This document shows, piece after piece, positions 1-59,840 of a stretch of 64,000 nucleotides of DNA. This DNA is from Myxococcota bacterium (lineage in GTDB: Bacteria > Myxococcota_A > Polyangia > HGW-17): contig DAIRVS010000001.1 in NCBI GenBank assembly GCA_036802685.1, positions 14,804 to 78,803 of the forward strand, in the 5' to 3' direction. Numbering within the stretch: position 1 is the first letter of the stretch; each line of letters opens with the position of its first letter. The position numbers were made by a program, and so were the translations under genes. The notes below the pieces were generated by a model. The model saw nothing but the letters and a program-made list of their open reading frames with translations. It did no database searches and was not told the origin of the DNA.

Positions 1-1824
1 ATAGGCCAGCTGCTGGGCCGTCTCGCGCAGCGCCGACGGCCGGCGGTGGGGATCCTGCTGCAGGCAGTTCTCGATCAACTCCACGAGGCCGCCGGGCAGG
101 TCCGGCCGCACGTCCGAGAGCCGGCGGCGCAGGCCCTTGATCTTGTTCTGGATGATCGTCTGCGTGTTCTCCGACTGGTACGGCGGCACCCCCGCGAAGA
201 ACTCGTACACCACGGCGCCGAACGAGTAGATGTCGGCCGCGCACGTGGCCTTCTCGCCCAAAAGCAGCTCGGGGGCGATGTACTCGGGCGTCCCCAGGGT
301 GATCCCCGGCCGCGTGAGGTCCTCGTCCATCCCCGAGAACGACTTGGCGATGCCGAAGTCGATCAGTTTCACCCGCTCGTCGCCGGAGGCGTCGCGCACC
401 AGGTGCAGGTTGTCGGGCTTGATGTCCCGGTGGATCAGCCCCGCCTCGTGGGCGGCCGCGATCCCGTAGGCCACCTGGGAGGCGTACTTGCACGCGCGGT
501 GCGGCGCCAGCGGTCCCTGGGTCAGGATCTCGCCCAGGTTGTGGCCCTCGAGCAGCTCCATGACCAGGAACGGCTTGACTCCCTCGATGAAGCCGTAGTC
601 CAGCACCTCCACCACCGACGGATGCGAGACCCGCGAGGCAGCCTTGGCCTCGCGTTCGAAGCGCACGCCGGCCTCCTCGGGGGACATGCTGCCCTTGGGC
701 TCGAGGACCTTCACGGCCACGCGGCGTCCCAGGGGCTGGTGGATGGCCTCGTAGACGCGCCCCATGCCGCCCTCGCCCAGGATGCGGGTGATCTGGTAGC
801 GCGAGGCGACGAGGTCGCCGGCGCGGATCTGGATCTCGCGCTTGCGGCTGCGGAACTCCTTGTAATCCTCGAGGAGGCGCTCGCGGTGCCCGACCTGCTG
901 CTTGCGCTCGGTGACGAACAGCGCGTGCATGAACGCCGCCGCGTCCCGGGAGTCGGTGCCCGGCGCGTTCTGCCCGAGCCAGGTGTTGGCCAGGGCGACC
1001 ACGTCCGAGGCCGAGGGGCGCTCGTCGGGGTCCGGGTCGAGCATGGACAGGATCAGGGTGTCCAGGCGCTCGTCCCCGCGGCCGCACACCGCCGTGGGAG
1101 GGCGCACCCCGGGCCCCTGGGCGCGGGCCTTGAGCTCGCGCATCATGTCCTCCTCCTTGCCGGGCTCGAACAGGCGGTGGCCGGTCACGAGCTCCCAGAA
1201 GAGGATGCCCAGGGAGTAGACGTCGGTGCGGTCGGTCATCTCGTCCCCGGCGGCCTGTTCGGGAGCCAGGTAGGGGAGCTTCCCGTAGATGATGCCGGGC
1301 TTGGTCAGGCGGCGGTTCTGGCCGGTGAGCGCCAGCCCGAAGTCCAGCACCTTGATCTCCCCCGAGAAGGTGAACATCACGTTGGGCGGGGACACGTCGC
1401 GGTGCACCAGGTTGAGCCCGTTGAAGCCATGGGCGTAGGAGAGCCCGCGGGCGGCCTCCTTCATCGCATAGACGATCACCGGCAGCGGGAACGGGACCCG
1501 CATCTGCGCGCACTGGTTCCAGATGGCGCGCAGGTTCTCGCCCTCGACGAGCTCCATGGCCATGTAGGCTTCCTGCCCCAGCACGCCGACGTCGAAGACC
1601 GACACCAGGTTGCCGTGCGCCATGCGCAGGGTGATCTCCACCTCGGACTGGAAGCGCAACAGCGCGTCCGGCGTCTGCGAGGAAGAGAGGATCTTCTTGA
1701 TCGCGCAGAACTTCTCCAGTCCGGGTTCCCCGTACACGGCCAGGTGGACCTGGCCCATTCCGCCGCGCGCCAAGGGTTCGAGCAACGTGTAACGACCGAA
1801 GGGGATGAATGATGATGCGCTCAT
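1..1824 (-). CDS. Tandem two-domain Hanks-type Ser/Thr protein kinase (partial; 3-prime end runs off window start)
   Basis: Minus-strand translation verified by hand. The N-terminal domain has ARGGMGQV, CAIKK, HRDVSPPN, DFGLA and YLAPE. The second domain has GEGGMGRV, VAVKVL, HRDIKPDN, DFGIAK and GTPEYIAPE. ATG is at 1824-1822. It is not in the ORF track because it is truncated at the window edge. Confidence 0.9.
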   Translation of the reverse strand, partial: MSASSFIPFGRYTLLEPLARGGMGQVHLAVYGEPGLEKFCAIKKILSSSQTPDALLRFQSEVEITLRMAHGNLVSVFDVGVLGQEAYMAMELVEGENLRAIWNQCAQMRVPFPLPVIVYAMKEAARGLSYAHGFNGLNLVHRDVSPPNVMFTFSGEIKVLDFGLALTGQNRRLTKPGIIYGKLPYLAPEQAAGDEMTDRTDVYSLGILFWELVTGHRLFEPGKEEDMMRELKARAQGPGVRPPTAVCGRGDERLDTLILSMLDPDPDERPSASDVVALANTWLGQNAPGTDSRDAAAFMHALFVTERKQQVGHRERLLEDYKEFRSRKREIQIRAGDLVASRYQITRILGEGGMGRVYEAIHQPLGRRVAVKVLEPKGSMSPEEAGVRFEREAKAASRVSHPSVVEVLDYGFIEGVKPFLVMELLEGHNLGEILTQGPLAPHRACKYASQVAYGIAAAHEAGLIHRDIKPDNLHLVRDASGDERVKLIDFGIAKSFSGMDEDLTRPGITLGTPEYIAPELLLGEKATCAADIYSFGAVVYEFFAGVPPYQSENTQTIIQNKIKGLRRRLSDVRPDLPGGLVELIENCLQQDPHRRPSALRETAQQLAY

Positions 1825-1969
1825 GGGTCCACATTATCCCACATTGTTGCCCCTCGCAATTTTTGTCGCGTTTCTCGGCCGCGTTTTCCCCGAACACCTG
1901 TTTTTCCGCCGTGGACATTCAATTTTTCTCTGGTAGATTATGGGAACGGCCCGCCGGAAAGGAGTCCCC

Positions 1970-3385
1970 ATGAACACGAGACACCGCCTGTTCCTGATCC
2001 CGTGGATCCTGCTGTCCCTCGTCGCCTGCGACGACGGCGGCACGAAGACGGGGTTCAACTCCAACAACGTCAACAACACGAACAACACGAACAACGTCAA
2101 CAACACCAACAACGTCAACAATATCAACAACGTCAACAACACGCAGATGGCGATCATCCGGGGCCGCGTGTGGAGCCCGGGCAGCGACGACCCGTTGGTG
2201 AACGACCACAACCGCATGCCGGTGCCCGGCGCGCTGGTGGCCATCTACACCAGCGGCATCGACGCCCCCCCGGACGGCAACTACTGCAACGAGTGCGTCG
2301 AGCTGCCCGAGGGCCTGCCCCACGTGTTCACCGACGCCGACGGCGCGTTCGAGATCCTCATCTATCCGAACCAGACCTACAACCTGCTGGTGCAGAAGGG
2401 CGAGTTCCGCCGCGTCACCCAGATCAACGTGGGCGGCCCCGGCGAGGTGATGGACCTGAACTCCCCGGCCGGCATGCCCACCAACACGATGACCACGCTG
2501 CCCAACTTCCATGACCCCGGCGCCGGCGCCTGGATGCCGCGGATCGCGGTGATCAAGGGCGGCTACGAGGACATGTCGCTGATGTTCGAGGCCCTGGGCT
2601 TCGACTACGACGGCGCCCGCGTGATCGAGGTCGATCCGGCCAGCGAAATCGGCTTCCCGATCCCGCCGTCCGAGGCCGACGAGCTCCTGGCGAACCCGAC
2701 CGAGCTCGCGAAGTACAACATCATCGTGATCACCTGCGGCGGCTCCACCACCGCGCTCACCAAGGGCACCGAGGCCAACAACCTGCGCGAGTGGGTGCGC
2801 GCCGGCGGCAAGCTCTACGTCGATGACTTCTCGTACGACTGGGCAGAGCAGAACTGGCCCGAGTTCCTCTCGTACTACCAGGAGCAGGGCTCCCAGGGCG
2901 CCGACGGCATGGGCGTGTGCGGCGACGACGATCCCTCCAGCCTGGGTGTCTGCAACAACTGGACCTCGTACTCCTGCACCGGCACGCCCCAGGACCAGAT
3001 GCTCACCGACTGGCTGGCCCTCAACGAGGTCAACCGCGGCTCGCCGATCCACCTCGAGGCGGCCTGGGACATCATCCACGAGCTGGGCAAGGGTCCCATC
3101 GGCGTGTGCGAGGACGACATGAACCCGGACTGCATCGACGGCGTCTACTACGCGCTGCCCAAGGTGTGGATGCGCGGCGACGCCCCCTCGAACCACCCGA
3201 ACAACCCGATGACCGTCTCCTGGAACTACTACTGCGGCAAGATCCTCTACACCGTCTACCACACCCACTCCGAGAGCGGCGGCTCCACCGATCCCAAGCA
3301 GTATGAACTCCTGATCCAGGAGAAGATCATGATGTTCCTGATCATGGAGATCCAGACCTGCACCAAGCCCAACATCATCGGCTAG
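1970..3385 (+). CDS. Secreted lipoprotein with Asn-rich tether and carboxypeptidase-regulatory-like beta-sandwich region; C-terminal ThuA/GATase1-like region (tentative)
   Basis: In-frame start inside ORF 1940..3385 with AAAGGAG RBS. Signal peptide with lipobox LVAC, then NNVNNTNN tract. The CarbopepD_reg-like segment reads AIIRGRVWSPGSDDPLVND...VPGALVAIY...DADGAFEILIYPNQ. Confidence 0.75.
   Translation: MNTRHRLFLIPWILLSLVACDDGGTKTGFNSNNVNNTNNTNNVNNTNNVNNINNVNNTQMAIIRGRVWSPGSDDPLVNDHNRMPVPGALVAIYTSGIDAPPDGNYCNECVELPEGLPHVFTDADGAFEILIYPNQTYNLLVQKGEFRRVTQINVGGPGEVMDLNSPAGMPTNTMTTLPNFHDPGAGAWMPRIAVIKGGYEDMSLMFEALGFDYDGARVIEVDPASEIGFPIPPSEADELLANPTELAKYNIIVITCGGSTTALTKGTEANNLREWVRAGGKLYVDDFSYDWAEQNWPEFLSYYQEQGSQGADGMGVCGDDDPSSLGVCNNWTSYSCTGTPQDQMLTDWLALNEVNRGSPIHLEAAWDIIHELGKGPIGVCEDDMNPDCIDGVYYALPKVWMRGDAPSNHPNNPMTVSWNYYCGKILYTVYHTHSESGGSTDPKQYELLIQEKIMMFLIMEIQTCTKPNIIG
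2063..2142 (+). repeat. In-frame tandem 6/9-bp repeat encoding (NNV/NNT)n linker
   Basis: aacaacgtcaacaacacgaacaac... periodicity seen directly. Confidence 0.8.
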
Positions 3386-3401
3386 CCCCCCGGAATCCCT
3401 T

Positions 3402-3428
3402 CCAAATCGAAATCGAAATCGAAATCGG
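3402..3428 (+). repeat. Intergenic element CCAAATCG(AAATCG)3G, copy A, plus-strand orientation, about 16 nt after the stop of the 1970..3385 lipoprotein gene
   Basis: Sequence read directly. Near-identical to the reverse complement of 12780..12824. Confidence 0.7.
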
Positions 3429-3438
3429 TCCCGATGGC

Positions 3439-4095
3439 CTACCGAAGGGCGAAGATGAGCACGGTGGTGAGCACCAGCGTCACCGCGATGATGCCCAGGA
3501 CGAGGACGAGATCGACGAGGAACGACGAGTTGCGGGCGGTGGGAGGAGGAGGAGGCACGTCCACGGCCTCCATGCGCAGGGTCTGCTCGGTCTCCCGGCG
3601 CCGGGGACCGCGGGGGCCGGACAGGCCGGGGATGCCGTCGTACGATGGCGGGGTCTGCAACGGGGGCGGCGGCGGCAACTGGCTCTGGGAGCGCTGCAGG
3701 CTGCGGGCCCGGCTGCGGGCGACGATCTCGCTCAGGTCGGGGTCCGCGGTGGCCACCGAGGGCACCGACGGCACCGGCGCGTCGTCGTGCATCGAGGACT
3801 CCACCTCGCCGGCGGAGAACTCGACCATGCCGTCCATGGCGTTCTTGCCCAGTTGCAGCGGCTTGCGGGACGGCGGCGGGATGGCCGGCTTCTTCTTGCC
3901 CGCGCCGGCCACGGCCGGGACCGGCGCCGGCGGCGGGGCGAGCATCCCGCCGGGGACGGGCATCTTCACCGTGTCGTTGTGCACCTTCTGCTGGCGGGAG
4001 CGACCCACGATGGGCAGCGCGTAATTGCACTGCAGGCAGCTCCCCGCCTTCAAGGCCTTGCGATTGAGCTCGACTCCGCAACCCGGACAGCGCAA
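3439..4095 (-). CDS. Tail-anchored membrane protein with N-terminal zinc ribbon (CPGCG...CLQC), Pro-rich linker and C-terminal TM helix
   Basis: ORF 3439..4095. The start codon is TTG (no ATG at the ORF head). It lies 13 nt downstream of the phosphoesterase stop with a GGGGGA SD-like run. GC3-rich. The internal ATG (MPVPGG) is an alternative start. Confidence 0.55.
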   Translation of the reverse strand: MRCPGCGVELNRKALKAGSCLQCNYALPIVGRSRQQKVHNDTVKMPVPGGMLAPPPAPVPAVAGAGKKKPAIPPPSRKPLQLGKNAMDGMVEFSAGEVESSMHDDAPVPSVPSVATADPDLSEIVARSRARSLQRSQSQLPPPPPLQTPPSYDGIPGLSGPRGPRRRETEQTLRMEAVDVPPPPPTARNSSFLVDLVLVLGIIAVTLVLTTVLIFALR

Positions 4096-6273: not shown

Positions 6274-6287
6274 GTTCACGTGTGAAC
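6274..6287. promoter_or_regulatory. Perfect 14-bp palindrome GTTCACGTGTGAAC in low-GC region upstream of the PEGA gene (candidate operator)
   Basis: Seen directly, about 76-89 nt upstream of start 6198. The flanks contain additional TGAA/TTCA half-sites. Confidence 0.3.
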
Positions 6288-6376
6288 GTGGCGTGAATGT
6301 TCGGTGAAGATTTTAGCCACTATGTAGGCCGTTTTTATGCCAAACGCCACCAGCCATGGGACATTTTTTCCACAGT

Positions 6377-8339
6377 TCATTTCCTTACAACGCGAAAGCC
6401 GGTGACGTAACTCAATCCCGTAGGAGAGTATCCTCCTCGATAGGACACTGAGCAGTAATTCGCCGTACTGGCCCAGTTTCCACCGCGACGAACGCGGTTG
6501 GTTCCTGTAGCCGACCCTCGATAATCCGTAACGGTTCCCGTTGGGTAGGTGCCGAAATAATCCCACATCCATTCCCATACGTTTCCGCTCATATCAAAAA
6601 TTCCGAGTTCGTTGGACAACTTGGTGCCCACGGAATTACTTCGTCCCGTTGTGGTTCGGCCAGTCTCACTTGTGTTGTACCCGAACACCGCATAATCCAT
6701 GATGGGGTTTGATCCTGTGCTTCCAGCGAATACCTTCATGAACCCGGTCGTGTTCGTGGCGCCCGGGGCAGCCGTGTCAGCGCCCATCGCCGCCCACATC
6801 CACTCCATTTCGGTTGGCAGCCGATACCCATCGGCTGTCCAGTTCGCCGTCGCTGCGTCCCAATCGGCGTTCGTGTCCATCGGAATCTGATCGTAAGTCA
6901 GACTGTTAAAATCGACACCGATGACTGAGTAAACTGGCGTCAACCCCCTCTAAAAGACTCAATTTGTTGCAGAAAGCAACCACCCTATACCATGACACAC
7001 TTTGCACAGGGTCGCTCATTCCCCCCGAAACCGATGGATCGCTCGGGTCCAGCCATCCCGTCACGGCCATCCATTGGGCTCGGGTAATTTCGTATTGGCT
7101 TATCCGAAAAGCCGACACAATGCTAAGGTTCGGTCCCATCGTGTCCCGCTGGAAAGTTCCGGCTGCAACATAGACCATCGTTCCGATGTTCTGGCTCTGG
7201 TAATTCATCGTGCAAGTTGATGTCACAAACCCGGTACAACCTGAATTGCAGGTGAGCAGTCCGCTGGCGAAACCCCGCGTGACACATGTCTGTCCATTCA
7301 GGTTCGATCCATCACACGTCTCACTTTCATCGATCATTCCGTTGCCGCACATCGTGCAAGTGGACGTGACAAACCCAGTACAGGCTGGGTTGCACGCGAG
7401 TGACCCGCTGACGAAGCCTTGTGTGACACAGGTGTGGCCATTTAAATTTGATCCATCACAAGTCTCACCATAGTTACCCTGGATGACTCCGTCACCGCAA
7501 CGCCCTGCCAAGACACAGGAAGTGTCGTCGAAGGCCTGGCAATCTGTGCTGCAAGAGAGCGTTCCTCCATACCAACCTTGAGAGACGCAACTCTGCCCGT
7601 TCATGTCTGCTCCGTCACAGGTTTCACCGCCATCGATTGCTCCGTTGCCACACATCGTGCACCCACCTGTAAAAAACTCCGAACATCCGGCATTACATAC
7701 CAGCGTACCGCTGACGAAACCCTGCGAGAAACAAGTCTGTCCATTCAAATCCAGTCCATCGCAAACTTCCTCATCATCCACAGAGTCATTGCCACAGTTC
7801 GTGCACCCCGACGTATCGAACGCTGTGCACTCCGAATTGCAACCAAGCACGCCGCCATAAAAGCCGAGCGAAGTACACGTCTCGTCATCCAGATCCGTGC
7901 CGTCGCAGGGTTCAAACGGACTCGCAGCCACGAGGTCCCCACATTCCGCCGTCAGTTCGCACAGAGAGACGTCCCAACGGCACACGTCCTTGCATCCGAG
8001 CACACCACCACCCAACCCCAACTCCGAGCAGGATGTATCTGCCAAATTGACACCATCACATTGCTCTCCATGGACTGTTTGGATGGCTCCGTCCCCGCAA
8101 CGCCCTCCTGTGCACACCGCGAGGTTGAACGTGCAATCGCTTCGACAGGTTAAAACACCTTCTTGCCCATAGTAGCCCAAGTCCGCGCACGTCGCGGCTG
8201 TCATCGCATCACCGTCGCACTCCTCGCCCGGATCCAAGAAATCGTCGCCACAGGAATCGACGTTCTTCGTCTTCGTATCGCAGCCCCACACCAGCAGACA
8301 GGTGCCCAACAGCATCGAGATCAAGGTCCTTATGGTCAT
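6377..8339 (-). pseudogene. Frameshifted paralog of the lipoprotein / Myxococcus Cys-rich repeat / FGE-sulfatase domain protein
   Basis: Two overlapping minus ORFs (6906..8423 and 6377..6943) together align with the intact paralog 29324..31327. The break is at a G5 run (forward c5 at 6943-6947): gagggggttgacgcc here versus gaggggttgacgcc in the paralog, a +1 frameshift. Start MTIRTLISMLLGTCLLVWGC at 8339 with GGAGGA RBS. The gene has markedly lower GC than its neighbours. Confidence 0.7.
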
Positions 8340-8490
8340 GGCGGTCCTCCAGAGGATGGAAAAAGCGTAGTCGGTTCCCGCATCACGGTCAAGCATCAGA
8401 ATTTCCTCCATTTCCTGGTACAAGATCCATGAAGCGGACCCTGACCCGCCGATACCCCAATTTTTTTTAACAAAAACAAGCAGTTAGACC

Positions 8491-8637
8491 ATGTCACATG
8501 AGTTTGAGTCAGGCTTTTTCCATGCCACGCCGCCGTGGCACGGGCTGGGAACCATCCTCGAGGACCCGCCCGAGACCGCTCCCCCCCGCAACGCGGGTGT
8601 TCAGTTACCAATAATTCCAGTCGACTTCACCAATTGA
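8491..8637 (+). pseudogene. Remnant (N-terminal ~48 codons) of a DUF932 / TIGR03299 phage-plasmid-like protein
   Basis: A short ORF in a low-GC intergenic patch translates to MSHEFESGFFHATPPWHGLGTILED... The HE.ESG...TPWHGLG pattern is, to my recollection, the N-terminal hallmark of 300-aa DUF932 proteins. The ORF stops after 48 codons. Confidence 0.35.
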
Positions 8638-8830
8638 AGATGTTTACCCTTGAACCCACTGGAGAAGAAAACATGCGCGTGAATACCCACCCTCTGGTTT
8701 GAATGGATGATCTTCACCGAGTGAGTTACTGCAGCAGCACCAAAAGGACCGGCACTCATCGTAGCGCACAAACAGCTTGCGTTCGGGCGGTGGGGGCGGC
8801 ACCCTCGGAGGCGGACGAAAGGAGGTCCCC

Positions 8831-11492: not shown

Positions 11493-12692
11493 ATGCTCGT
11501 GTTCGTGATCAACTGCGGTTCTTCGTCGATCAAGTACCAGCTCTTCGAGATGCCCGAGAAGCGCCAGCTCGCCCGCGGCCTGCTCGAGCGCATCGGGGAG
11601 ACTGGTTCGGCGGTGCTCACCCACCGCGCCGGCGAGGGCAAGTGGATCCTCGAGGTGCACGCGCCGGATCACCGGGCCGGCCTCGACCACATCCTGCGGA
11701 CGCTGGTCTCCGGGGAGACCGCCGTCATCGACGACCTGTCCAGCATCCGGGCGGTGGGCCACCGCGTGGTGCACGGCGGAGAGCAGGTCCGTGAGGCCGT
11801 GGTCATCGACGCCGCGGTGGAGGACGTGATCGCCGGGTGCGCCGAGCTCGCCCCCGTGCACAACCCGCCCAACCTCATGGGCATCCGCACCGCGCGGGCC
11901 GTGCTGCCGGACTGCGTCCAGGTGGCCGTGTTCGACACCGCCTTCCATCACACGCTGCCGAAGAAGGCCTACCTGTACGCCCTGCCGCTGGAGCTCTACG
12001 AGCAGCACCGCATCCGCAAGTACGGCTTCCACGGCACCTCCCACGAGTACGTCGCCCAGGAGACCGCCCGCCGGCTCGGGAAGCCGCTTTCGGCGTGCAA
12101 CCTCATCACCTGCCACCTGGGGAACGGCTGCTCGATGACCGCCATCGAGGCCGGTCGCTCGGTGGACACCTCCATGGGGATGACGCCGCTGCAGGGGCTC
12201 ATGATGGGCACGCGCAGCGGCGATCTGGACCCGGCCGTGCTGATCCACCTGCTGCGCAACGGGTGGGTCGCCGACGTCGCCGAGCTCGACCGCCTGCTCA
12301 ACCGCAAGTCCGGCCTGGCCGGCATCTCGGGGCTCGGCAACGACATGCGCACCCTCGAGGAGCACATGGAGACGAACGAGCGGGCCAAGCTGGCCGTGGA
12401 AATGTTCGCCCACCGGGTGCGCTTCTACCTGGGCGGCTACCTGGCGCTCCTGGGTTCCTGCGACGCCGTGGTCTTCACCGGCGGCATCGGCGAGAACGAC
12501 TCCCTGCTGCGCCGGCTCGTGCTCGAGGGTCTCGCCCCGCTGGGCCTGGAGCTGGACCCGGCGGCCAACACCGCCACCGTGCGCGGGAAAGAAGGCGCGA
12601 TCACCACCGCGGCGAGTCGCATCCCGGCGCTGGTGATCCCCACCGACGAGGAGGGCATGATCGCCGCGAGCACCTACGCCCTGGCCCGCTAG
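11493..12692 (+). CDS. ackA: Acetate kinase
   Basis: N-terminal VINCGSSSIKYQLF hallmark. Full-length 399 aa. GGAGG RBS. Confidence 0.95.
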   Translation: MLVFVINCGSSSIKYQLFEMPEKRQLARGLLERIGETGSAVLTHRAGEGKWILEVHAPDHRAGLDHILRTLVSGETAVIDDLSSIRAVGHRVVHGGEQVREAVVIDAAVEDVIAGCAELAPVHNPPNLMGIRTARAVLPDCVQVAVFDTAFHHTLPKKAYLYALPLELYEQHRIRKYGFHGTSHEYVAQETARRLGKPLSACNLITCHLGNGCSMTAIEAGRSVDTSMGMTPLQGLMMGTRSGDLDPAVLIHLLRNGWVADVAELDRLLNRKSGLAGISGLGNDMRTLEEHMETNERAKLAVEMFAHRVRFYLGGYLALLGSCDAVVFTGGIGENDSLLRRLVLEGLAPLGLELDPAANTATVRGKEGAITTAASRIPALVIPTDEEGMIAASTYALAR

Positions 12693-12779
12693 CCACCCAG
12701 GGACCCCCGCAAAAGGGCGGCCCGTTTGAGGTCCGCGACCCGAAGACGGGTCACGAAGTGACCGGAATCATCTTCTTCT

Positions 12780-12824
12780 CCGATCCCGATTTCGATCCCG
12801 ATTTCGATTTCGATTTCGACTTGG
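12780..12824 (-). repeat. Intergenic element CCAAGTCG(AAATCG)3 GGATCGAAATCGGGATCGG, copy B, minus orientation, about 20 nt after the stop of the minus-strand RCC1 lipoprotein gene
   Basis: The reverse complement of the forward sequence matches copy A over CCAARTCGAAATCGAAATCGAAATCGG. Confidence 0.7.
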
Positions 12825-12842
12825 AACCGGAGTCGGACCCGG

Positions 12843-14870
12843 TCACAGGGAATAATCGTCCACGGGGAGGATCACGCGGCGGGGCACCAAGGCGGCGGTG
12901 GTGGTCAGGTTCCCCAGCTGGCCTTCGGAGTTGTGGCCCCAGCAGTACAGTTCGCGGTCCGCAGTGAGCCCGCAGGTGTGGGTGACGCCGGGAGAGACGG
13001 CGTTGAACCGCAGATCGGTGACGACCGTGGTGGCCGTACTGCGATTCGTAGTGGTGCCGTCGCCGAGCTGGCCGTACTGGTTCCACCCGAAGCACAGGGT
13101 GGTCCCCAGCACGCCGTGGAGCAGACAGGTGTGGGAGCCGAAGGTCCACGTCGCCGCGGCGTCGATGTGGCCGTCGATCTGCACCGGCGTGAGACGGTTG
13201 GTGAAGGTGGCGTCGCCGAGTTGGCCGTAGTTGTTCAGGCCCCAGCAGTATACGATCCCGCCGGTGGTCCGGGCGCAGGTGTGGCCCGTGCCGCAGGTGA
13301 CGGTGGCGATGTTGGTGAGGGAGGAGATGGCCACCGGCACCCGGGAGTCCGTGGTGTTGCCGGTGCCGAGCTGGCCATTGTCGTTACGACCCCAGCACAC
13401 CCCGTTTCCAGTCTGATTACGCAAACAATTGTGTTCGTAGGAGCTTGAGATTTGAGTAGCCAAAGACACCCCCGAGACCTGCACCGGCACCGCGCTCGAG
13501 GTCGTCGAGTTGTTGCCCAGTTGGCCCCGGGCGTTGTCCCCGAAGCACCACGCGGTCCCGAGGAGGGTCAGGACGCAGGTGTGCCGAAAGCCCAGGCCCA
13601 GCTGGATCGCGTTGGTGAAGATCCCCGCCCGCACCGGCAGGGACGAGTGGGCGGCGATCCCGTGGCCCAACTGGCCCGAGTCCCCCCGGCCCCAGCACCA
13701 CACCTCGCCGCCGGCGCGCAGGGCGCAGGTGTGGAAGTAGCCGGCCTGCACCGCGGTGACGTCCTCGAGGCCCTGGACCAGCACCGGTCCGGTCCGGTCC
13801 GCGGTGGTGCCGTCGCCGAGCTGGCCCATGGAGTTGTCCCCCCAGCACAGCACCCGTCCGGTGTTCAGCAGGGCGCAGGTGTGCAGGTAGCCCGCGGACA
13901 CGGCCACCGGATACCGGAGGCGGTTGCACAGGTACTCCTCGCGGGTGACCTCGGGATCGCCCAAAACGCCGTCCCCGTCGAGGTCCAGCCCCGTCTCGAC
14001 GAGCACGCCGCCATAGGGGCAGGCGCCGCCCCACTCCACCGTCGTCAGCCGGGTGAGGGCGTTGTGGCCGTGGCACACGGCCTGTTCGTCCTGGACCTCG
14101 CCGTCGCCGAGGGCGCCGTCCCCGTCGGTGTCCAGCCCCGTCTTCACGAGGAGACCGCCCTGGGGACAGGGCGCGCCCGGCGCCAGCGGATCCACCCGCA
14201 CCAGGGAGTTGGTCCCGACCGTTCCGTCCTCGCCGGGGGCCCCATGGCAGACATAGGAGACGTCGTCCACCTCCAGCGGTCCGAGGACGCCGTCGCCGTC
14301 GTCGTCGAGGCCGGTGGAGACGGCCAGGCCGCCGTGCAGGCAGTTCGCGCCGGCGGGCTCGTCCAGAATGCTCACCAGGGAGGCGGGACCGCCGCCGGTG
14401 CCCGACGCGCTCTGGCAGACAAGGTTTGAACTCGTTCGTTCGTCTTCATCCAGAACCGCATTCCCGTTCTGGTCCAGACCCCAGTAGTAACGCTGGCCGC
14501 CGTTGGGACACTCGACGCCGGGGGCGAGCTCCTCCACGTGGAGGAGCGTGGACAGCCCGTCCCGCCCGTCCTGGCCGTCCTGGCCGTTTTCACCGTTTTC
14601 ACCGTTTTCACCGTCCTCGCCGTCGTCGCCGGGGAGCCCGTTGCAGACCGTCTGGATGCTCTCGATCTCGCCGGTCTCCAGGGCCCCGTTGCCGTTGGTG
14701 TCCTTTCCGGCCATGACCACCATACCCCCATACGGGCACTGGATGGACGAGGCCGACTCGATGAGCACCAGGGTGCCCTGGCCGTCCTGGCCGTCCTGGC
14801 CGGTGCAGGCCAGGAGCGCCCAGAGCAGCGACGACGTGAGCAGCAGACGGCGATGGAACAACTTGCGCAT
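12843..14870 (-). CDS. Lipoprotein with collagen-like G-x-y tracts, five ~45-aa CPxGG / D-x-D-G-D-G (Ca-binding-like) repeats and a C-terminal RCC1-repeat beta-propeller
   Basis: Start [22 protein letters not shown] at 14870 (codon 132 of ORF 12843..15263). Eight or more CWGxNxxGQLGxG RCC1-type repeats. GQDGQDGQG and [19 protein letters not shown] tracts are present. Confidence 0.8.
14563..14640 (-). repeat. In-frame 9-bp tandem repeat encoding [16 protein letters not shown]
   Basis: ggccgttttcaccgttttcaccgttttcacc seen directly. Confidence 0.8.
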
Positions 14871-27390: not shown

Positions 27391-28236
27391 ATGCCGGGAC
27401 CCATCGCCCTCTGCCTCGAGAACTGCTACCCCGCCCACGAGAGCCTGCGCTACCTGCGCTGCGTCGCCCTCTCCGGCGCCGAGCCGGCCCTGTCGATCCT
27501 GCCCGGCGGCGAGATCGAATGGCACCAGGAGACCCCCGGACACGGCCAGTTGTGGGTCAGCGCCGACGAGCGGCTGATCTTTCATCGCCCCTCCGGCAGC
27601 GTCGGCTGGGCCCAGGTGCACCGCGGCGGCCGCCGGGTGGAGGTCCCCGAGGGAAAGCCGGTGGTGCTCCTCGACGGCGACTACCTCGTGGTTCCCGGCT
27701 TCTGCTACCGAATCCACGTCCACGGCCCGGCCGGCCAGATCCACGAGCCCACCTATTTGGATGGGCAGGATCCCGCGCGCCAGGAGCCCGCCCGGCACAC
27801 CCGCCACCGGCTGGCCGCCGCCGGTCTGGTGGCCGTCGCCACGCTCTTCGGCGCCCAGGGGGCGTGCACCACGGAAAAACCGGTGAACGAGAAGCCCGAG
27901 CCCCGGGAGGCCGGCGACCCCGGCCCCGACCAGCCCATGCCACCGGTGGACGAGCCGGACATGAAGCAACCGGTCCAGCCCGACATCGACGTGCGCGATC
28001 ATCCGCCCGCGCCGCTGCCCCCGGACGGCTACCGGAACATCCGCCCCGCGAACGAGTCCCTGGGCACGGTGGCGCCGCCGGCCGCGCCGCCGCCCATCGA
28101 GGTGCGCGTCGCGCCGCCCAAGCCGGCCCCGCCCATGAACCCGCCGCCCATGAAGGGCGACATGAAGGGCGACATGAAGGGCGACATGGACGAGGACGGG
28201 GAGGAAGACGGGGATCCGGTCCCGCCCATGAAATGA
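27391..28236 (+). CDS. Hypothetical membrane protein with Pro-rich tail and KGDM x3 repeat
   Basis: Start MPGPIAL at 27391 with GGAAGGAGA RBS. One TM segment (LAAAGLVAVATLFGA). Low-complexity C-terminus. Confidence 0.55.
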   Translation: MPGPIALCLENCYPAHESLRYLRCVALSGAEPALSILPGGEIEWHQETPGHGQLWVSADERLIFHRPSGSVGWAQVHRGGRRVEVPEGKPVVLLDGDYLVVPGFCYRIHVHGPAGQIHEPTYLDGQDPARQEPARHTRHRLAAAGLVAVATLFGAQGACTTEKPVNEKPEPREAGDPGPDQPMPPVDEPDMKQPVQPDIDVRDHPPAPLPPDGYRNIRPANESLGTVAPPAAPPPIEVRVAPPKPAPPMNPPPMKGDMKGDMKGDMDEDGEEDGDPVPPMK

Positions 28237-28345
28237 ACTGTCCTGGCGCTGGTCCCCACCCGCCCGGTTAAAACACAAGAAAGTCCTTGTTTTTCAGGGT
28301 ATTTTCTGCCACATTACAGGCAGTTCGACCACCCGAGGAAGGAAC

Positions 28346-29308
28346 ATGAAACTCACCGTCTCGCTTCTGATCCCGTTGCTCCTGATCGCCGCCTCCCCCG
28401 CCCGCGCCCAGGAGATCGTCTGCCCCAAGCCCACCGCCAGCCTCGAGGACAACAAGAACGAGGCCCGCCGCTACTTCAACATGGGCAACACGTACTTCAA
28501 CATGAAACAGTACGACAAGGCCGCCGCCTCGTTCCGCTGCGTCATCGGGCTCGTCCCCTACTCCGTCATGGCCCGCTACCGCCTCGCCATCTCCTACGAG
28601 CAGCTCGGCAAGGTCGCCCTCGCGCTGGAGCAGTTCCAGTGGGTGGTCGCCGACGCCTCGGACGAGGCCAAGCCGCTCCACGCCGACGCCCAGAAGCGCA
28701 TCGAGGCCGCCGAGAAGGCCGCCGCGGACGCCAAGGCCAGGGCCGACGCCGAAGCCAAGGCCAAGGCCGACGCCGTCGCCAAGGCCAAAGCCGACGCCAA
28801 GGCCAAAGCCGACGCCGACGCCAAGGCCAAAGCCGACGCCAAGGCCAAAGCCGACGCCGACGCCAAGGCCAAAGCCGACGCCAAGGCCAAAGCCGACGCC
28901 GACGCCAAGGCCAAGGCCGACGCCGACGCCAAGTCCCGACGCGAGACCCCGGGGACCACCCCCTCCCCCGCCGGCGGCCTCACCTCCCGCTGGTGGTTCT
29001 GGACCGGCGTGGGCGCCACCGTCCTGTTCACCGGCGCCACGGTGGTGCTCGGCCTCACCACGCTGGACCTCCAGAAGCAGTGGGAGGCTGACTGGGACCC
29101 CGAGGACCGCTCAAAGCTCGAGGACTTCCGGCTCTACACCGATCTCGCTTTGGGCGCCACGATCGTGTCGGCCGCCGCCCTGGGCGTGACCCTCTTCCTC
29201 ACCCGCGGCGACCGCGCCCCGAAGGGCCCCGCGGACACCACCGGCTGGCACGTCTTCCCCTCCTGCGGCCCCGACGGTTGCCAGTTGACCCTTTCCCTGG
29301 GATTCTAA
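28346..29308 (+). CDS. Secreted TPR-like protein with (AKADAK)n repeat tract and C-terminal two-TM anchor module (WWFWTGVGA...)
   Basis: Signal peptide [24 protein letters not shown]-like [21 protein letters not shown]. Repeat tract and TM segments read from the ORF. Confidence 0.75.
28730..28935 (+). repeat. In-frame 18/30-bp tandem repeats encoding ([10 protein letters not shown])n
   Basis: gccaaggccaaagccgacgccgacgcc... seen directly. Confidence 0.85.
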
Positions 29309-31342: not shown

Positions 31343-33139
31343 ATGCGTACCGTTAATAATTTGCTTATCATCTCCTGTCTCGGCGTCCTCTCCGCCTGCT
31401 CCCTCCTCGTCGAGGTCAAGGACCGACCGGCCAACAACGTCAACAACGTCAACAACGCGAACAACACCAACAACGCCGTCTGCGGCGACGGCGTGGTGAC
31501 CGGCGGCGAGTCCTGCGACGAGGAAAACCTCAACGGCCTCACCTGTCTGGACCTGGATTTCGCGGGAGGTTGGCTGCAGTGCACCGCCGATTGCAGTTTC
31601 GACACTTCCGAATGCTCCGACGCACCCGTCTGCGGGGACGGGCTCCGGTCCGAGACCGAGCTCTGCGACGGCGAGGATCTCGGCGGCCAAACCTGCGAGA
31701 GCCTGGGCCGGGGCTTTATTGAGGGCCAATTGTATTGTAAAGAGGATTGCGCCGATTTCGACACCACCCAGTGCGTCGGCGGGGGAGAGATCTGCGACAA
31801 CCTGATGGACGACGACGGGGACGGTGATACCGACTGCGCCGACGCCGACTGCGCCTCGCTCCCGATCTGTACGGGAGGCTCCTGCGGAAACGGGCTGATC
31901 GAAGGCGAGGAAGAGTGCGACGGGGACAACCTCAACAACCTGCTGTGCGAGGACTTCGGCTTCACGCCCGGCGGCGCGCTCGATTGTGACGGCCCGTCCT
32001 GCAAATTCATCTTTTCGGGATGTACCTACACCTCCGGCATGTCGCCGCCGAACGTGATCGTCGCCGGCGAATCCCACACCTGCGCCGGCTCGTCCGAAGG
32101 CGTCTACTGCTGGGGGTACAACGATCATGGACAACTCGGCACCAACACCTCTTTCATGTACCGCCCCACCCCGGGCCAAAAAATCGATTTCAATGGTATA
32201 GAGCTTGGAACCTCTGCTCTGGCCGCCGGGGGTGCCCACACCTGCATGGTCTCCGATAACGCGGGTATGTACGGTCACCTCGTGTGTTGGGGCGCCAACT
32301 CCCACGGCCAGCTCGGCACCGGCTCGGCCGGCAACGACTCGGCGCCCGTGAATGTCGGCGGGACGAACACCTACTCGGACGTGGTCGCGGGCCGGGAACA
32401 CACCTGCGCCCTGCGCACCGACGGCAAGGTGTTCTGCTGGGGCAGCAACCTGCGCGGCCAGCTCGGGTTGCCCGGCGCGGGGACCCTCGTCCCCAGCCCG
32501 ACCGAAGTCACCAGCATTTACAATGTCACCTCGCTCTCGGCGGGCTACCACCACACCTGCGCGATCCAGGAGGAGACGGCCGGGCAGGGGGAACTGTTCT
32601 GCTGGGGCGACAACACCGAGGGCCAGATCGGAAACGCGGATTGGACGGACGTGATCGAACAACCCACGGCCATCACGGATCTGACCTTCGTTCAGAAGGT
32701 CGCCTGCGGGGAACGACACACCTGCGCCATCGCGGAGGGGAGCAGCGTGTGGTGCTGGGGCGCCAACACCGAAAGCCAGCTCGGCATGGGAGGATCCGGC
32801 TCCAACTTCCCCCAGCAGGTCGGGGATCTCCAGGCGTTCCAGATCTGGGCCGGCGCCAATCACACCTGCGTGATCACGGACGCCATCGGATCGGTGTCCT
32901 GCTGGGGCCGCAACGTCCACGGCCAGATCGGCGTCGACCACACCCAGCCGGTGGGCAGCCCCGTGCCATTGACGATCGGAGATTTCATGATGCTGGGGGG
33001 CGGGGGGGACCACACCTGCGGCATCATCAATGTTGGTGGCACCTTCAAGGCCTACTGCTGGGGCGCCAACTGGTTCGGCCAGTTGGGCCAAGGCAACACC
33101 GCCACCAACCCCTCCCCCTGGCCGGTGCTCGGGCAATGA
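31343..33139 (+). CDS. Lipoprotein: same leader and Asn-rich tether, ~5 Myxococcus cysteine-rich repeats, C-terminal RCC1-repeat beta-propeller
   Basis: The first ~30 codons are near-identical to the 29324 gene ([27 protein letters not shown] vs MRTLSNLFIVSIFSVLSACTLLVEVKD). CWG.N..GQLG repeats occur 7-8 times. Confidence 0.85.
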
Positions 33140-36032: not shown

Positions 36033-36554
36033 TCAATGGATCGTCGGGCAGCCGGCGAAGTCCGCGCACAGCCCGGTCTCGACGGCGTCCTCCCAGCACA
36101 GCCGGCCGGCGCCGCGGAAGCATCCGGCCGCGCCGGAGCCGTACATCTCGCAGTCGATGGAGCACTGGGACAGATCCTCGCCGCCGCAGTCGGTGACCAG
36201 CAGGTCGCAGGCGCCGTCGCAGAACCCGACGTCGTCGAAGGTCTGGCAACGCATGCATTCTTCGTAGCCGGTACAGTCGGTGGCCGCCAGCAGGCAGGTC
36301 TTGACATACGGCTCCAGGGTCCCGTCGCACTTCGTCACGCAGGAATCCACGGTCGCGCCGAAGACCGTCTCCTTGTCGGTGATCGTCTCGCAGGCCATCA
36401 GCGCCGCGCACATCGTCTGGCAGGCCGTCTGGTTGTTCGCGTTGTTGACGTTGTTGACGTTGTTGATGTTGTTCGCGTTGTTGGACGATTCGTCGTCGTC
36501 ACAGGCGACGAGCGCGGCGAGGGTCAAAAGGGAACAAATGAGAAGTTTTTTCAT
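36033..36554 (-). CDS. Small Cys-rich lipoprotein (20 Cys) with Asn-rich tether
   Basis: Start MKKLLICSLLTLAALVAC at 36554. [17 protein letters not shown] tract. Lies 21 nt upstream of the 34101..36011 gene. Confidence 0.7.
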   Translation of the reverse strand: MKKLLICSLLTLAALVACDDDESSNNANNINNVNNVNNANNQTACQTMCAALMACETITDKETVFGATVDSCVTKCDGTLEPYVKTCLLAATDCTGYEECMRCQTFDDVGFCDGACDLLVTDCGGEDLSQCSIDCEMYGSGAAGCFRGAGRLCWEDAVETGLCADFAGCPTIH

Positions 36555-57610: not shown

Positions 57611-59329
57611 TCAGTAGTGGAGAGTCATGCCCAGACCGGCCCCGCCTTGCAGCATCAGGGGTTCCCAGGTCACCTGCCCCCCCTCGGGGACAGTCTGCAG
57701 ACGGATCCGGGAGTCCGGGCTCGTGTCGATGAACGTGCGGTAGAGCGCCACGGCGAAGGACAACGCGGAGACGCCGTAGAGCACGTTCGCTGCGATGGCG
57801 TAGATCTTGCCGTCCTGCAGGCGCGCGTCGTTGCTGTACACCGGGATCCCCGCATCCAGGTCGGCCTGGTAGTCGTCCTTCAAGGAGACAGACTTGCCCC
57901 CGGCCCAGATGCCCGCTCCCAGGGCAGCCAGCCCCAGCACGTACCCCGAGATGGCGCCCGTGCGGTCCGGCGCCCGGTTGAGCGTGACCTCGTAGGACTT
58001 CTGCTCGCCCGGGGCCACCTCGACGCGGGTGGACACCGCCTTGCGATCCTTCTTGACGATGCGCAGGCGGTGGGCGCCGGCGGGGATCTTCACCCTGGAA
58101 CAGGGCGCCACGCAGACGGTCTTCCCGTCCACCTTCACCCGGGCGTCGCGCACGTTGCGCCCGAGGACGGTGAGGTAGCCGATGGGCTGCCGCTCCAGCG
58201 GGACGTGCACCGTGTTGCTCTCGCCGGCGGACACGTCGATCTCGCGCTTCTCGCCCCGGTATCCGTCCTGCTCCACGTACACCGTGTGCTTGCCGGGCGG
58301 GAGCACGCCGTTGTAAGGCGTGTGGCCCACGGGACCGATGTCCTTCTTGTCCACGAACACCTGGGCGCCGGGCACGTTGCTCGTGATCTGCACCCACGCC
58401 ATGTTCACGTCCTTCTTCAGGCTGACCATGATGTCGAGCATCCGGTTCTCCTGGACGTGGATCTCGCGCCGGATGTCCGAGAACCCCTTCATCTCGACGA
58501 TCAGGACGTGCTTGCCCAGGGGGATCTCGCCCTCGAACGGGGAGGTGCCGAGCTTCTCCTTTTTATCGTTCAGGTAGAGCGCGGCGCCCGGAGGATCCGT
58601 GGAGACCGCGGTCAGCGTGCGGGTGGCGATGGGCGGCAACTCGGGCTTCTCCAGAGGCGGCGCGGGCTTGTCCGCAGGCTTGTCCGCAGGCTTGTCGCCC
58701 GGCTTGTCCACGGGCTTGTCGCCAGGCTTGTCCACGGGCTTGTCGCCAGGCTTGTCGCCAGGCTTGTCCACGGGCTTGTCGCCAGGCTTGTCGCCCGGCT
58801 TGTCTGCAGGCTTGTCGCCCGGCTTGTCCGCAGGCTTGTCGCCCGGCTTGTCCGCAGGCTTGTCGCCAGGCTTGTCGCCAGGCTTGTCCACAGGCTTGTC
58901 CCCAGGCTTGTCCCCCGGCTTGTCCACGGGCTTTTTCAGGCTCTCCTTGTACTCGATGAGCCGATCGAGCAGCCGGATGCGCGCCTGAATGGACGCGAGC
59001 TCCTTGGTCTGGGGATCCTTGGCGAGGAAGTCGACGAAGTACTGCTTGGCCTGCTCGTACTTCTCCACTTTTTCATAGCAGACCGCGATGTTGAACAGGA
59101 ACGCCGGCAGGGGCTTGGCCTCGTAGGCCTTGAGGAAGGACTCGGCCGCCTTCTCGAACTGGCCCGCCCCGAAGAGGGCCTGACCGGCCTTGAAGTGCTC
59201 CTTGGCCTTCTCGGTGGCCTCGTCCTTTCTCGACTTGCTGTCGCCGCCTTTCTGGGCCATGGCGCCCGACGGACAGGCGGCGATCAGGATCAGGGAGAAC
59301 CAAAAAGACAGGAAATGTCTGGTTTTCAT
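57611..59329 (-). CDS. Secreted TPR protein with (DKPG/A/V)n repeat tract, three PEGA domains and C-terminal two-TM anchor module
   Basis: Start MKTRHFLSFWFSLILIAACPSGAMA at 59329. PEGA-like units around PGAALYLNDKKEKLGTSPF, PGAQVFVDKKDIGPVGHTPY and ARVKVDGKTVCVAPC. Confidence 0.8.
   Translation of the reverse strand: MKTRHFLSFWFSLILIAACPSGAMAQKGGDSKSRKDEATEKAKEHFKAGQALFGAGQFEKAAESFLKAYEAKPLPAFLFNIAVCYEKVEKYEQAKQYFVDFLAKDPQTKELASIQARIRLLDRLIEYKESLKKPVDKPGDKPGDKPVDKPGDKPGDKPADKPGDKPADKPGDKPADKPGDKPGDKPVDKPGDKPGDKPVDKPGDKPVDKPGDKPADKPADKPAPPLEKPELPPIATRTLTAVSTDPPGAALYLNDKKEKLGTSPFEGEIPLGKHVLIVEMKGFSDIRREIHVQENRMLDIMVSLKKDVNMAWVQITSNVPGAQVFVDKKDIGPVGHTPYNGVLPPGKHTVYVEQDGYRGEKREIDVSAGESNTVHVPLERQPIGYLTVLGRNVRDARVKVDGKTVCVAPCSRVKIPAGAHRLRIVKKDRKAVSTRVEVAPGEQKSYEVTLNRAPDRTGAISGYVLGLAALGAGIWAGGKSVSLKDDYQADLDAGIPVYSNDARLQDGKIYAIAANVLYGVSALSFAVALYRTFIDTSPDSRIRLQTVPEGGQVTWEPLMLQGGAGLGMTLHY
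58668..58930 (-). repeat. In-frame 15-bp tandem repeat (~17 units) encoding DKPGDKPADKPV...
   Basis: ggcttgtcgccaggcttgtccacgggcttgtc... seen directly. Confidence 0.9.
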
Positions 59330-59495
59330 GGCTGTCTCGTTCACGGTTTCCGGCCGGGAGCGGCCATACACCCCACAGAAATAGCACAAGTCGACGGGAT
59401 GTGCATGTGTTAAGTCCCGGCGGGTTCGGCGGAAATTGCACCTACATTTGACTCCATTGGAGTACTGTGGTACACAAACACCTAGGGAGGTGCAC

Positions 59496-59840
59496 ATGGA
59501 GCCTGGAATCGCCGAACACCGCAAGACACCGAGGTGGCGCGTCTTCTGCCCTGTCGTGGTGCGATCCGCCGAGTACGGCGAGGTCCGGGCGCTGGGCATC
59601 AACATCTCGTCGGGGGGCATCTTCATCCAGACCTTCGACCCGCTCCCGCTGGGCACCGCGGTCGAGATCCAACTGGGGGAGCACGAAGGCGTCATCGCCC
59701 GCGGCATCGTCCGCAGCCACTACTACATGACCTACCGTGAGCGCGAGAACCCGGCCTCCTGCACGGGCATGGGCGTGCGCTTCGTCGGCTTCGACGACGT
59801 CGTGACCGCCGACCGGGACGACGCGCACCCGCTGCATTGA
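59496..59840 (+). CDS. PilZ-domain protein (second single-domain copy)
   Basis: RKTPRWR (RxxxR) and NISSGG ([DN]xSxxG). GGGAGG RBS before ATG 59496. Confidence 0.75.
   Translation: MEPGIAEHRKTPRWRVFCPVVVRSAEYGEVRALGINISSGGIFIQTFDPLPLGTAVEIQLGEHEGVIARGIVRSHYYMTYRERENPASCTGMGVRFVGFDDVVTADRDDAHPLH

Follow-up and report, generated by a model that had tools for sequence, protein, structure and literature searches.

Several types of short extragenic repeat have been described for bacteria and can serve as a reference for the element analysed here. MITEs are short, non-coding and multi-copy, and they are present in some genomes and absent from close relatives. REP sequences of enterobacteria and pseudomonads are imperfect palindromes of 20-40 nt that are tied to RAYT transposases. 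They are extragenic, are often found at gene 3′ ends or in convergent gaps, and occur singly or as inverted pairs which form hairpins; in BIMEs, units of alternating orientation and variable motifs are combined into mosaics. BOX elements of Streptococcus pneumoniae are modular: between conserved end modules that can pair, an internal unit (boxB, ~45 nt) is repeated in tandem, with a copy number that varies. Simple sequence repeats (SSRs, VNTRs) consist of perfect short units in head-to-tail arrangement, the number of which differs among close relatives at one and the same locus.

We analysed a hexanucleotide repeat, (GAAATC)n, in a 64 kb stretch of a MAG contig (ENA ERZ724098 NODE_169), which is referred to as the window. 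The repeat occurs at two positions (site 1 and site 2). An earlier note had described it as a dispersed element which follows lipoprotein genes in gene-matching orientation and which might be a 3′-UTR RNA motif. Comparison with related sequences leads us to consider it fairly likely that both copies belong, as solo or decayed cassettes, to a MITE/REP-like family of extragenic repeats of the HGW-22 group, and that they are lineage-specific and not a gene-specific signal. The features at the two sites are the following (window coordinates, strand, description).

1970-3385, +, lipoprotein gene with lipobox LVAC; its stop is 16 nt before copy 1
3400-3437, +, cassette copy 1, consisting of TTCCAAATC, (GAAATC)3 and GGTCCCGATGG (GGTCCCGATGG)
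3439-4095, -, gene for a proline-rich, C-terminally membrane-anchored protein, convergent; its stop is 1 nt past the cassette including the GGTCCCGATGG flank
11493-12692, +, acetate kinase gene, in convergent orientation to the RCC1 lipoprotein gene
~12700-12723 and 12734-12755, two short GC-rich hairpins between the acetate kinase stop and the palindrome
12758-12845, imperfect palindrome around copy 2, with outer stem GTGACCGG/CCGGTCAC and inner stem CTCCGGTTCC/GGGATCGGAG
12780-12826, -, cassette copy 2, consisting of TTCCAAGTC, (GAAATC)3 and GGGATC GAAATC GGGATC GG
12843-14870, -, RCC1-repeat lipoprotein gene with lipobox LLAC; its stop is 18 nt before copy 2

The sequences of the two copies read exactly as had been given in the earlier note, with CCAAATCGAAATCGAAATCGAAATCGG at 3402-3428 (+) and, as the reverse complement of 12780-12824, CCAAGTCGAAATCGAAATCGAAATCGG followed by GATCGAAATCGGGATCGG. 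In copy 2, the (GAAATC)3 array passes into a degenerate continuation with a periodicity of 12 nt. TRF reports (AAATCG)4.0 with 100% identity at 3404-3427 for site 1; for site 2 it reports a 6/12-nt array at 12781-12819, with 5.5 copies at 85% at 12787-12819. When up to 2 mismatches are allowed, the core TCGAAATCGAAATCG has 9 overlapping matches in the 64 kb window, where 0.07 are expected, and all of these are at the two sites. Five consecutive phased xxATCG hexamers are also confined to sites 1 and 2 in the window, and none were found in 20 shuffles. Besides GAAATC, CCCGCG is the only hexamer that forms perfect arrays of at least 3 units in the window. Since the window has a GC content of ~67%, the occurrence of an AT-rich hexamer array at two positions is not due to chance. 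In addition, the two copies have the 5′ flank TTCCAA-N-TC in common.

The search was extended to related genomes. A scan for TCGAAATCGAAATCGAAATCG, with one genome per species, returned >103 stretches and, among the matches listed, many copies are from the Myxococcota MAGs JAHITJ01, PHAZ01 (HGW-22), PHBF01, and DYGK01. A clade-specific pattern retrieved 38 more loci from metagenomes. The arrays of this clade have 3-9 units and a 5′ consensus of TTCCAR-N-TC, with which both 5′ flanks in the window agree, while the 3′ flank starts with G. Copies of the cassette are thus numerous within this Myxococcota clade, and its designation as a dispersed element proved to be appropriate. On the Ga0180007 contigs, solo arrays are found beside ordinary host genes every 2-3 kb, a setting that is usual for extragenic repeats. 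Many of the array matches are located at contig ends, as such arrays break assemblies.

The clade arrays are part of repeated elements of 100-260 nt. Frequently, two arrays form an opposed pair that folds into a long hairpin (z = -5.4 for locus L051, -3.1 for L024, and -5.4 for L129). The 3′ flank of site 1, GGTCCCGATGG, corresponds to the beginning of an outer module that is common in these elements. With at most 1 mismatch, it is found in 12 of 106 clade arrays, compared to none of 128 arrays that stem from viruses or other phyla. The same AT-rich unit at two sites, the shared 5′ flank and the clade-specific 3′ flank of site 1 together argue for common descent. The modules of the elements have been reshuffled extensively: for one inner arm, at least 5 different outer partners were counted, for the other inner arm at least 6, and the positions where sequences switch partners fall exactly at the arrays. 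A half-element that is orthologous between L030 and L094 has 3 units in one and 4 units in the other, and the module beside the TIR differs as well.

In the HGW-22 clade, two MITE families (T1 and T2) could be delimited, which have TIRs beginning with CAGGGC and 10-bp TSDs and which contain (GAAATC)n arrays as inverted repeats in their interior. Elements of family T1 have the TIR CAGGGCRRTCGAGTTCT and a length of 292-318 bp. Three independent insertions (L048, L118, L135) are flanked by exact 10-bp TSDs, which are GGTGTCAATC, GGCCCCCGAA, and ACTGTCATGG, respectively. Family T2 has the TIR CAGGGCRRTCGCAAGAAG and a length of 248-627 bp; the 10-bp TSDs are exact in L031 and L152 and match at 8 of 10 positions in L132, L136, and L147. 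Every T1 and T2 element contains two or three arrays, which are sub-terminal and of opposed orientation, and the orientation of the array toward the TIR is opposite in T1 versus T2. The CAGGGC ends and the size of the duplication recall the ISAs1 family, with CAGGG ends and duplications of 8-10 bp, which is a candidate source of the parent transposase. T1 and T2 are hitherto undescribed, and an autonomous parent did not come to light; copies are at L048:3471-3777, L118:3707-4024, L135:7467-7758, L031:6473-7099, and L152:1782-2087.

The repeat of the window resembles MITEs in being short and non-coding, in its copy number (twice in the 64 kb window, many times in sister genomes), and in its presence or absence among relatives. 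What counts against an origin from such elements is that the window copies have no recognisable MITE terminus or TSD, and that homology extends past the array by only 9-11 nt on each side. Neither the TIRs of T1 and T2 nor the GCTTAAGYGRTCACGCAT motif were found near either copy. The best TIR-like match, at 12698, was dismissed, as it requires 5 edits, a level at which chance alone gives 66 matches in the window. The window copies are best regarded as solo and probably truncated cassettes, and they are probably neutral. No transposase gene is present among the window ORFs and regions examined. We also considered a mobile island enclosed by the two inverted copies and rejected it: the ORFs between them are ordinary (a metallophosphatase, an FGE-sulfatase-like protein, and unknowns), and the gap at site 2 is not a synteny breakpoint.

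Several other repeats were noticed in the window. The region 6279-8777 has a low GC content (~54%) and carries a 144-nt tandem repeat at 7206-7468, located inside or beside ORF 6906-8339, for which a weak match to FGE-sulfatase was obtained. Homology between the window and L111 begins only at 8764, and upstream of this position L111 has a phage integrase gene instead. CAACAAC-type 9-nt repeats are found at 2056-2142, 31430-31477, and 36432-36483. The first of these encodes an Asn-rich linker directly after the lipobox of the lipoprotein encoded at 1970-3385, and the other two are near the starts of candidate lipobox ORFs identified by a crude screen. The 12-nt unit GGCTTGTCCCCA has 22 copies at 58665-58933, within range of ORF 57611-59719 (-); if the reverse complement of this unit is translated, it would give a putative (WGQA)n. 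An 18/42-nt tandem repeat rich in AAGGCCGACGCC at 28715-28942 is within range of ORF 28232-29308 (+) and would give putative Lys-Ala-Asp-Ala repeats if translated.

Among the alternatives to a decayed mobile cassette, an origin as independent microsatellites has to be weighed first. The two arrays would then result from local slipped-strand expansion, with the TCGA palindrome contained in the GAAATC array stabilising slippage by fold-back, and would have no link to a mobile element. The arrays do consist of perfect short units arranged head-to-tail, and the unit number differs among close relatives at a single locus. Furthermore, (GAAATC) arrays of at least 3.5 units are found in many phyla and in viral contigs. 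However, in a genome with 67% GC, the same AT-rich unit would have to arise at two positions within 64 kb, on both occasions next to a TTCCAA-N-TC flank, and the 3′ flank of site 1 would have to match the clade arms by coincidence. We therefore regard independent microsatellites as an unlikely origin of the window copies.

The occurrence of (GAAATC) outside the clade deserves a closer look. In viral contigs, (GAAATC)3.5 was found in 42 stretches, while the control hexamers were found in 62 (GATAAC), 62 (GAAGTC), and at least 120 (GAAACT). As the controls are as frequent or more so, the cross-phylum occurrence of (GAAATC) is background, and we rejected the idea that this hexamer has a special role across phyla. 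Many of the out-of-clade matches resemble putative coding dipeptide repeats or unrelated arrays, as judged by their hexamer-periodic flanks. A full-text literature search with the repeat sequence led to nothing but primers and sequences from plants or animals, with no bacterial literature on the repeat, and a literature search on myxobacterial MITEs gave no relevant result.

Dispersed elements of their own kind were encountered in MAGs from two other phyla. The Planctomycetota MAG JAZDLC01 has multi-copy hairpin elements (L013:7100-7235; L075:1372-1449) with z = -10, in which ~30-bp stems of (GAAATC)n/(GATTTC)n surround a conserved loop of ~48 nt. In the Verrucomicrobia MAG CALLYA01, the dispersed element consists of GGTTGCCGATCAGTCCGATC, a mixed hexamer array, and GATCCCTGTTCTGGTTGGC, and is found on contigs L012, L052, L054, L065, L079, L081, L091, and L092. 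The array forms the end of many CALLYA01 contigs, so that the assembly seems to have been broken there.

A functional 3′-end RNA element, as had been suggested in the earlier note, is an improbable alternative. It would require that (GAAAUC)n in the 3′ UTR of a lipoprotein mRNA binds a factor or shapes termination or stability, with (GAUUUC)n in the opposite direction providing U-rich RNase E-like sites. The orthologous sites of relatives speak against such a function. The lipoprotein encoded at 1970-3385 has 88% protein identity to its counterpart in HGW-Deltaproteobacteria-22, and the window region 12-3381 has 87% nucleotide identity to contig PHAZ01000201 from HGW-22. To judge by these identities, the source organism is close to HGW-Deltaproteobacteria-22. 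The orthologous sites are as follows (site, relative, identity of the neighbouring protein, state of the array).

Site 1, L439, TM protein with 90% aa identity, array absent and gap sequence unrelated
Site 1, L440, TM protein with 79% aa identity, array absent and gap sequence unrelated
Site 1, HGW-22 (L106), lipoprotein with 88% aa identity, array absent and downstream genes different
Site 2, L111, acetate kinase with 95% aa identity, gap of 54 nt with only (GATTTC)2
Site 2, L112, acetate kinase with 85% aa identity, array absent
Site 2, L113, acetate kinase with 83% aa identity, array absent and gap of 0 nt

The arrays are thus missing or shortened in the orthologous gaps, which points to recent, lineage-specific arrays of variable length and not to a conserved 3′-UTR motif. 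At site 1, the gaps of relatives hold other sequence, small hairpins included, and it may be noted in favour of an RNA element that the cassette fills a gap where relatives have such sequence. Some details of the comparison are worth recording. The nucleotide identity to HGW-22 stops exactly at the lipoprotein stop codon (window 3381-3386 versus L106:4992), and downstream of the lipoprotein gene HGW-22 has DUF932 and Gp49/HTH (toxin-antitoxin-like) genes. L439 and L440 keep the gene order of the window around site 1. At site 2, the region 12693-12757 of the window (~65 nt), which comprises both GC-rich hairpins, is missing from L111, the closest relative.

The structural evidence for an RNA element differs between the two sites. 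The earlier note had considered the repeat not to be self-complementary. This holds only in part. Site 1 shows no significant structure when compared with shuffles (z = -0.4 and -0.9), but the unit contains the palindrome TCGA, and site 2 is part of an imperfect palindrome which folds with z = -2.8 on either strand. This fold, which would favour an RNA element, is not conserved, as the orthologue of site 2 in L111 has z = -1.1. Rfam 15 has 0 matches across the whole window at the gathering score, and a search of four related loci at relaxed thresholds returned nothing relevant, only a spurious sub-threshold match to a miRNA hairpin; a known RNA family was thus discarded. An intrinsic terminator was discarded as well, since no hairpin with a U-tract is present within 3386-3438 or 12693-12842, the hairpins in the gap at site 2 lacking U-tracts.

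It remains that both copies are in sense orientation close to a lipoprotein stop. The spacing of 15-20 nt claimed earlier was confirmed, with a distance of 16 nt from the TAG at 3383-3385 at site 1 and of 18 nt from the TGA (reverse complement of 12843-12845) at site 2, and so was the assignment of both upstream genes as secreted lipoproteins, each having a lipobox. A rule cannot be derived from this. Copy 1 fills most of a 53-nt gap between convergent stops, and copy 2 is within a 150-nt gap between convergent genes. Each copy is thus 3′ of two genes, and a match in polarity with one of the two neighbours is automatic. For solo arrays of relatives with both neighbours callable, we counted 9 convergent, 15 tandem, and 2 divergent contexts, based on gene calls that are crude GC3-based estimates. 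In the tandem contexts, 10 arrays are sense and 3 antisense (9 and 3 for independent loci) according to the same estimates; this sense excess is not significant, and an orientation bias relative to genes was not accepted.

A specificity for lipoprotein genes was also rejected. In relatives, the arrays are beside signalling genes (EAL, GGDEF, PAS response-regulator) and EGF-domain genes and not beside lipoprotein genes, and inside the MITEs they occur in both orientations. Within the window, at least 6 further lipobox ORFs have no array according to a crude screen, which itself missed both known lipoprotein genes. The generalisation to a gene-matching signal behind lipoprotein genes therefore does not hold. 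Nevertheless, the spacing of 16-18 nt and the non-significant sense excess leave some room for selection on the transcript.

About as improbable is that the arrays are protein-binding sites on the DNA, which the earlier note had also proposed, the hexamers being putative sites for the MITE transposase or for a host protein, e.g. as recombination hot spots or in nucleoid organisation. Being sub-terminal and inverted in two MITE families, the arrays resemble transposase-binding repeats, which are often so arranged, and both the partner switches at arrays and the break of HGW-22 synteny exactly at site 1 would fit. On the other hand, the orientation toward the TIR is opposite in the two families, the unit number is highly variable, and the site 2 gap shows no break in synteny; no candidate protein emerged, and the window regions examined lack a transposase gene.

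A coding function, either as a small ORF on the reverse strand of the arrays, which reads (Asp-Phe)n, or as a readthrough extension of a neighbouring gene, is largely refuted and deserves next to no credence: the DF frame is open at both sites and at site 1 in frame with the stop of 3439-4095, and the stretch 'IGTDFDFDF' recurs in L031 and L051, but the frame at site 1 has only 18 codons from stop to stop and lacks a start codon, that at site 2 runs antisense through the well-supported RCC1 gene, the arrays are in different frames after the two lipoprotein stops (KS versus NR), and no gene is called at the arrays on the source contig.

We thus return to the decayed cassettes of a mobile family as the preferred explanation. 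In sister genomes, the cassette 5′-TTCCAR-N-TC-(GAAATC)n-G...-3′ is the internal, inverted sub-terminal repeat of non-autonomous MITEs of 250-630 bp, and the window copies would be solo cassettes of this lineage-specific family. In relatives, the elements have been transposed in trans, and the differences in unit number are the result of slippage. The window cassettes would have arrived recently, either because an element was transposed and later truncated or because arrays recombined or underwent gene conversion with each other, and it would be such array-mediated recombination or truncation that gave rise to solo copies. Their array length may have changed by slipped-strand mispairing as well. 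The cassettes may persist in gaps between convergent genes because insertions there spare promoters, and an effect on mRNA 3′ ends, e.g. by the hairpin at site 2, would be incidental. For the source genome, of which 64 kb were compared, the existence of the family is extrapolated from relatives.

A more far-reaching version has a small chance of being correct. The cassette TTCCAR-N-TC-(GAAATC)n might itself be the active unit, a microsatellite arm that is recognised by a transposase or recombinase or is exchanged from array to array, and it would then drive the reshuffling of MITEs and seed solo copies at gene 3′ ends. If so, mosaic extragenic elements with microsatellite arms would form a class of their own that has not been described before, and the elements of the Planctomycetota and Verrucomicrobia MAGs would be independent look-alikes. 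Should the arrays turn out to be bound by a transposase or to be sites of recombination, the family would be a useful model for the formation of mosaic MITEs. Our results remove the false lead of a lipoprotein-specific 3′-UTR signal, and they document an abundant extragenic repeat family with hexanucleotide-array arms in an uncultured Myxococcota clade. The arrays mark rapid intergenic turnover and could serve for strain typing or as natural cases of microsatellite recombination.

Of the systems described at the outset, bacterial MITEs may be considered first. Like these, the elements of sister genomes are non-coding and multi-copy, have a length of 250-630 bp, and show 17-18 bp TIRs and 10-bp TSDs. 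An unusual trait among bacterial MITEs is that their arms consist of perfect hexanucleotide arrays whose length varies, and the window copies differ in having no recognisable TIR or TSD. The extragenic location, often at gene 3′ ends or in convergent gaps, and the occurrence as single units or as inverted pairs that form hairpins are shared with REP sequences, and the shuffled modules resemble the mosaics of BIMEs. Unlike the palindromic, RAYT-associated REPs, however, the cassette consists of tandem hexamers, and transposition in relatives is of the TIR/TSD type. With BOX, the family shares its modular construction and the variable number of a tandem unit between pairable modules, but the unit is 6 nt and not ~45 nt in length and both sequence and host are unrelated, so that this is an analogy only. 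As in SSRs and VNTRs, the hexamers are in perfect tandem and their copy number differs among close relatives. In contrast to these, the copies have flanks in common that are specific to the family, relatives carry them within mobile elements, and the window arrays are outside of promoter and coding regions, where a change in length would switch a gene.
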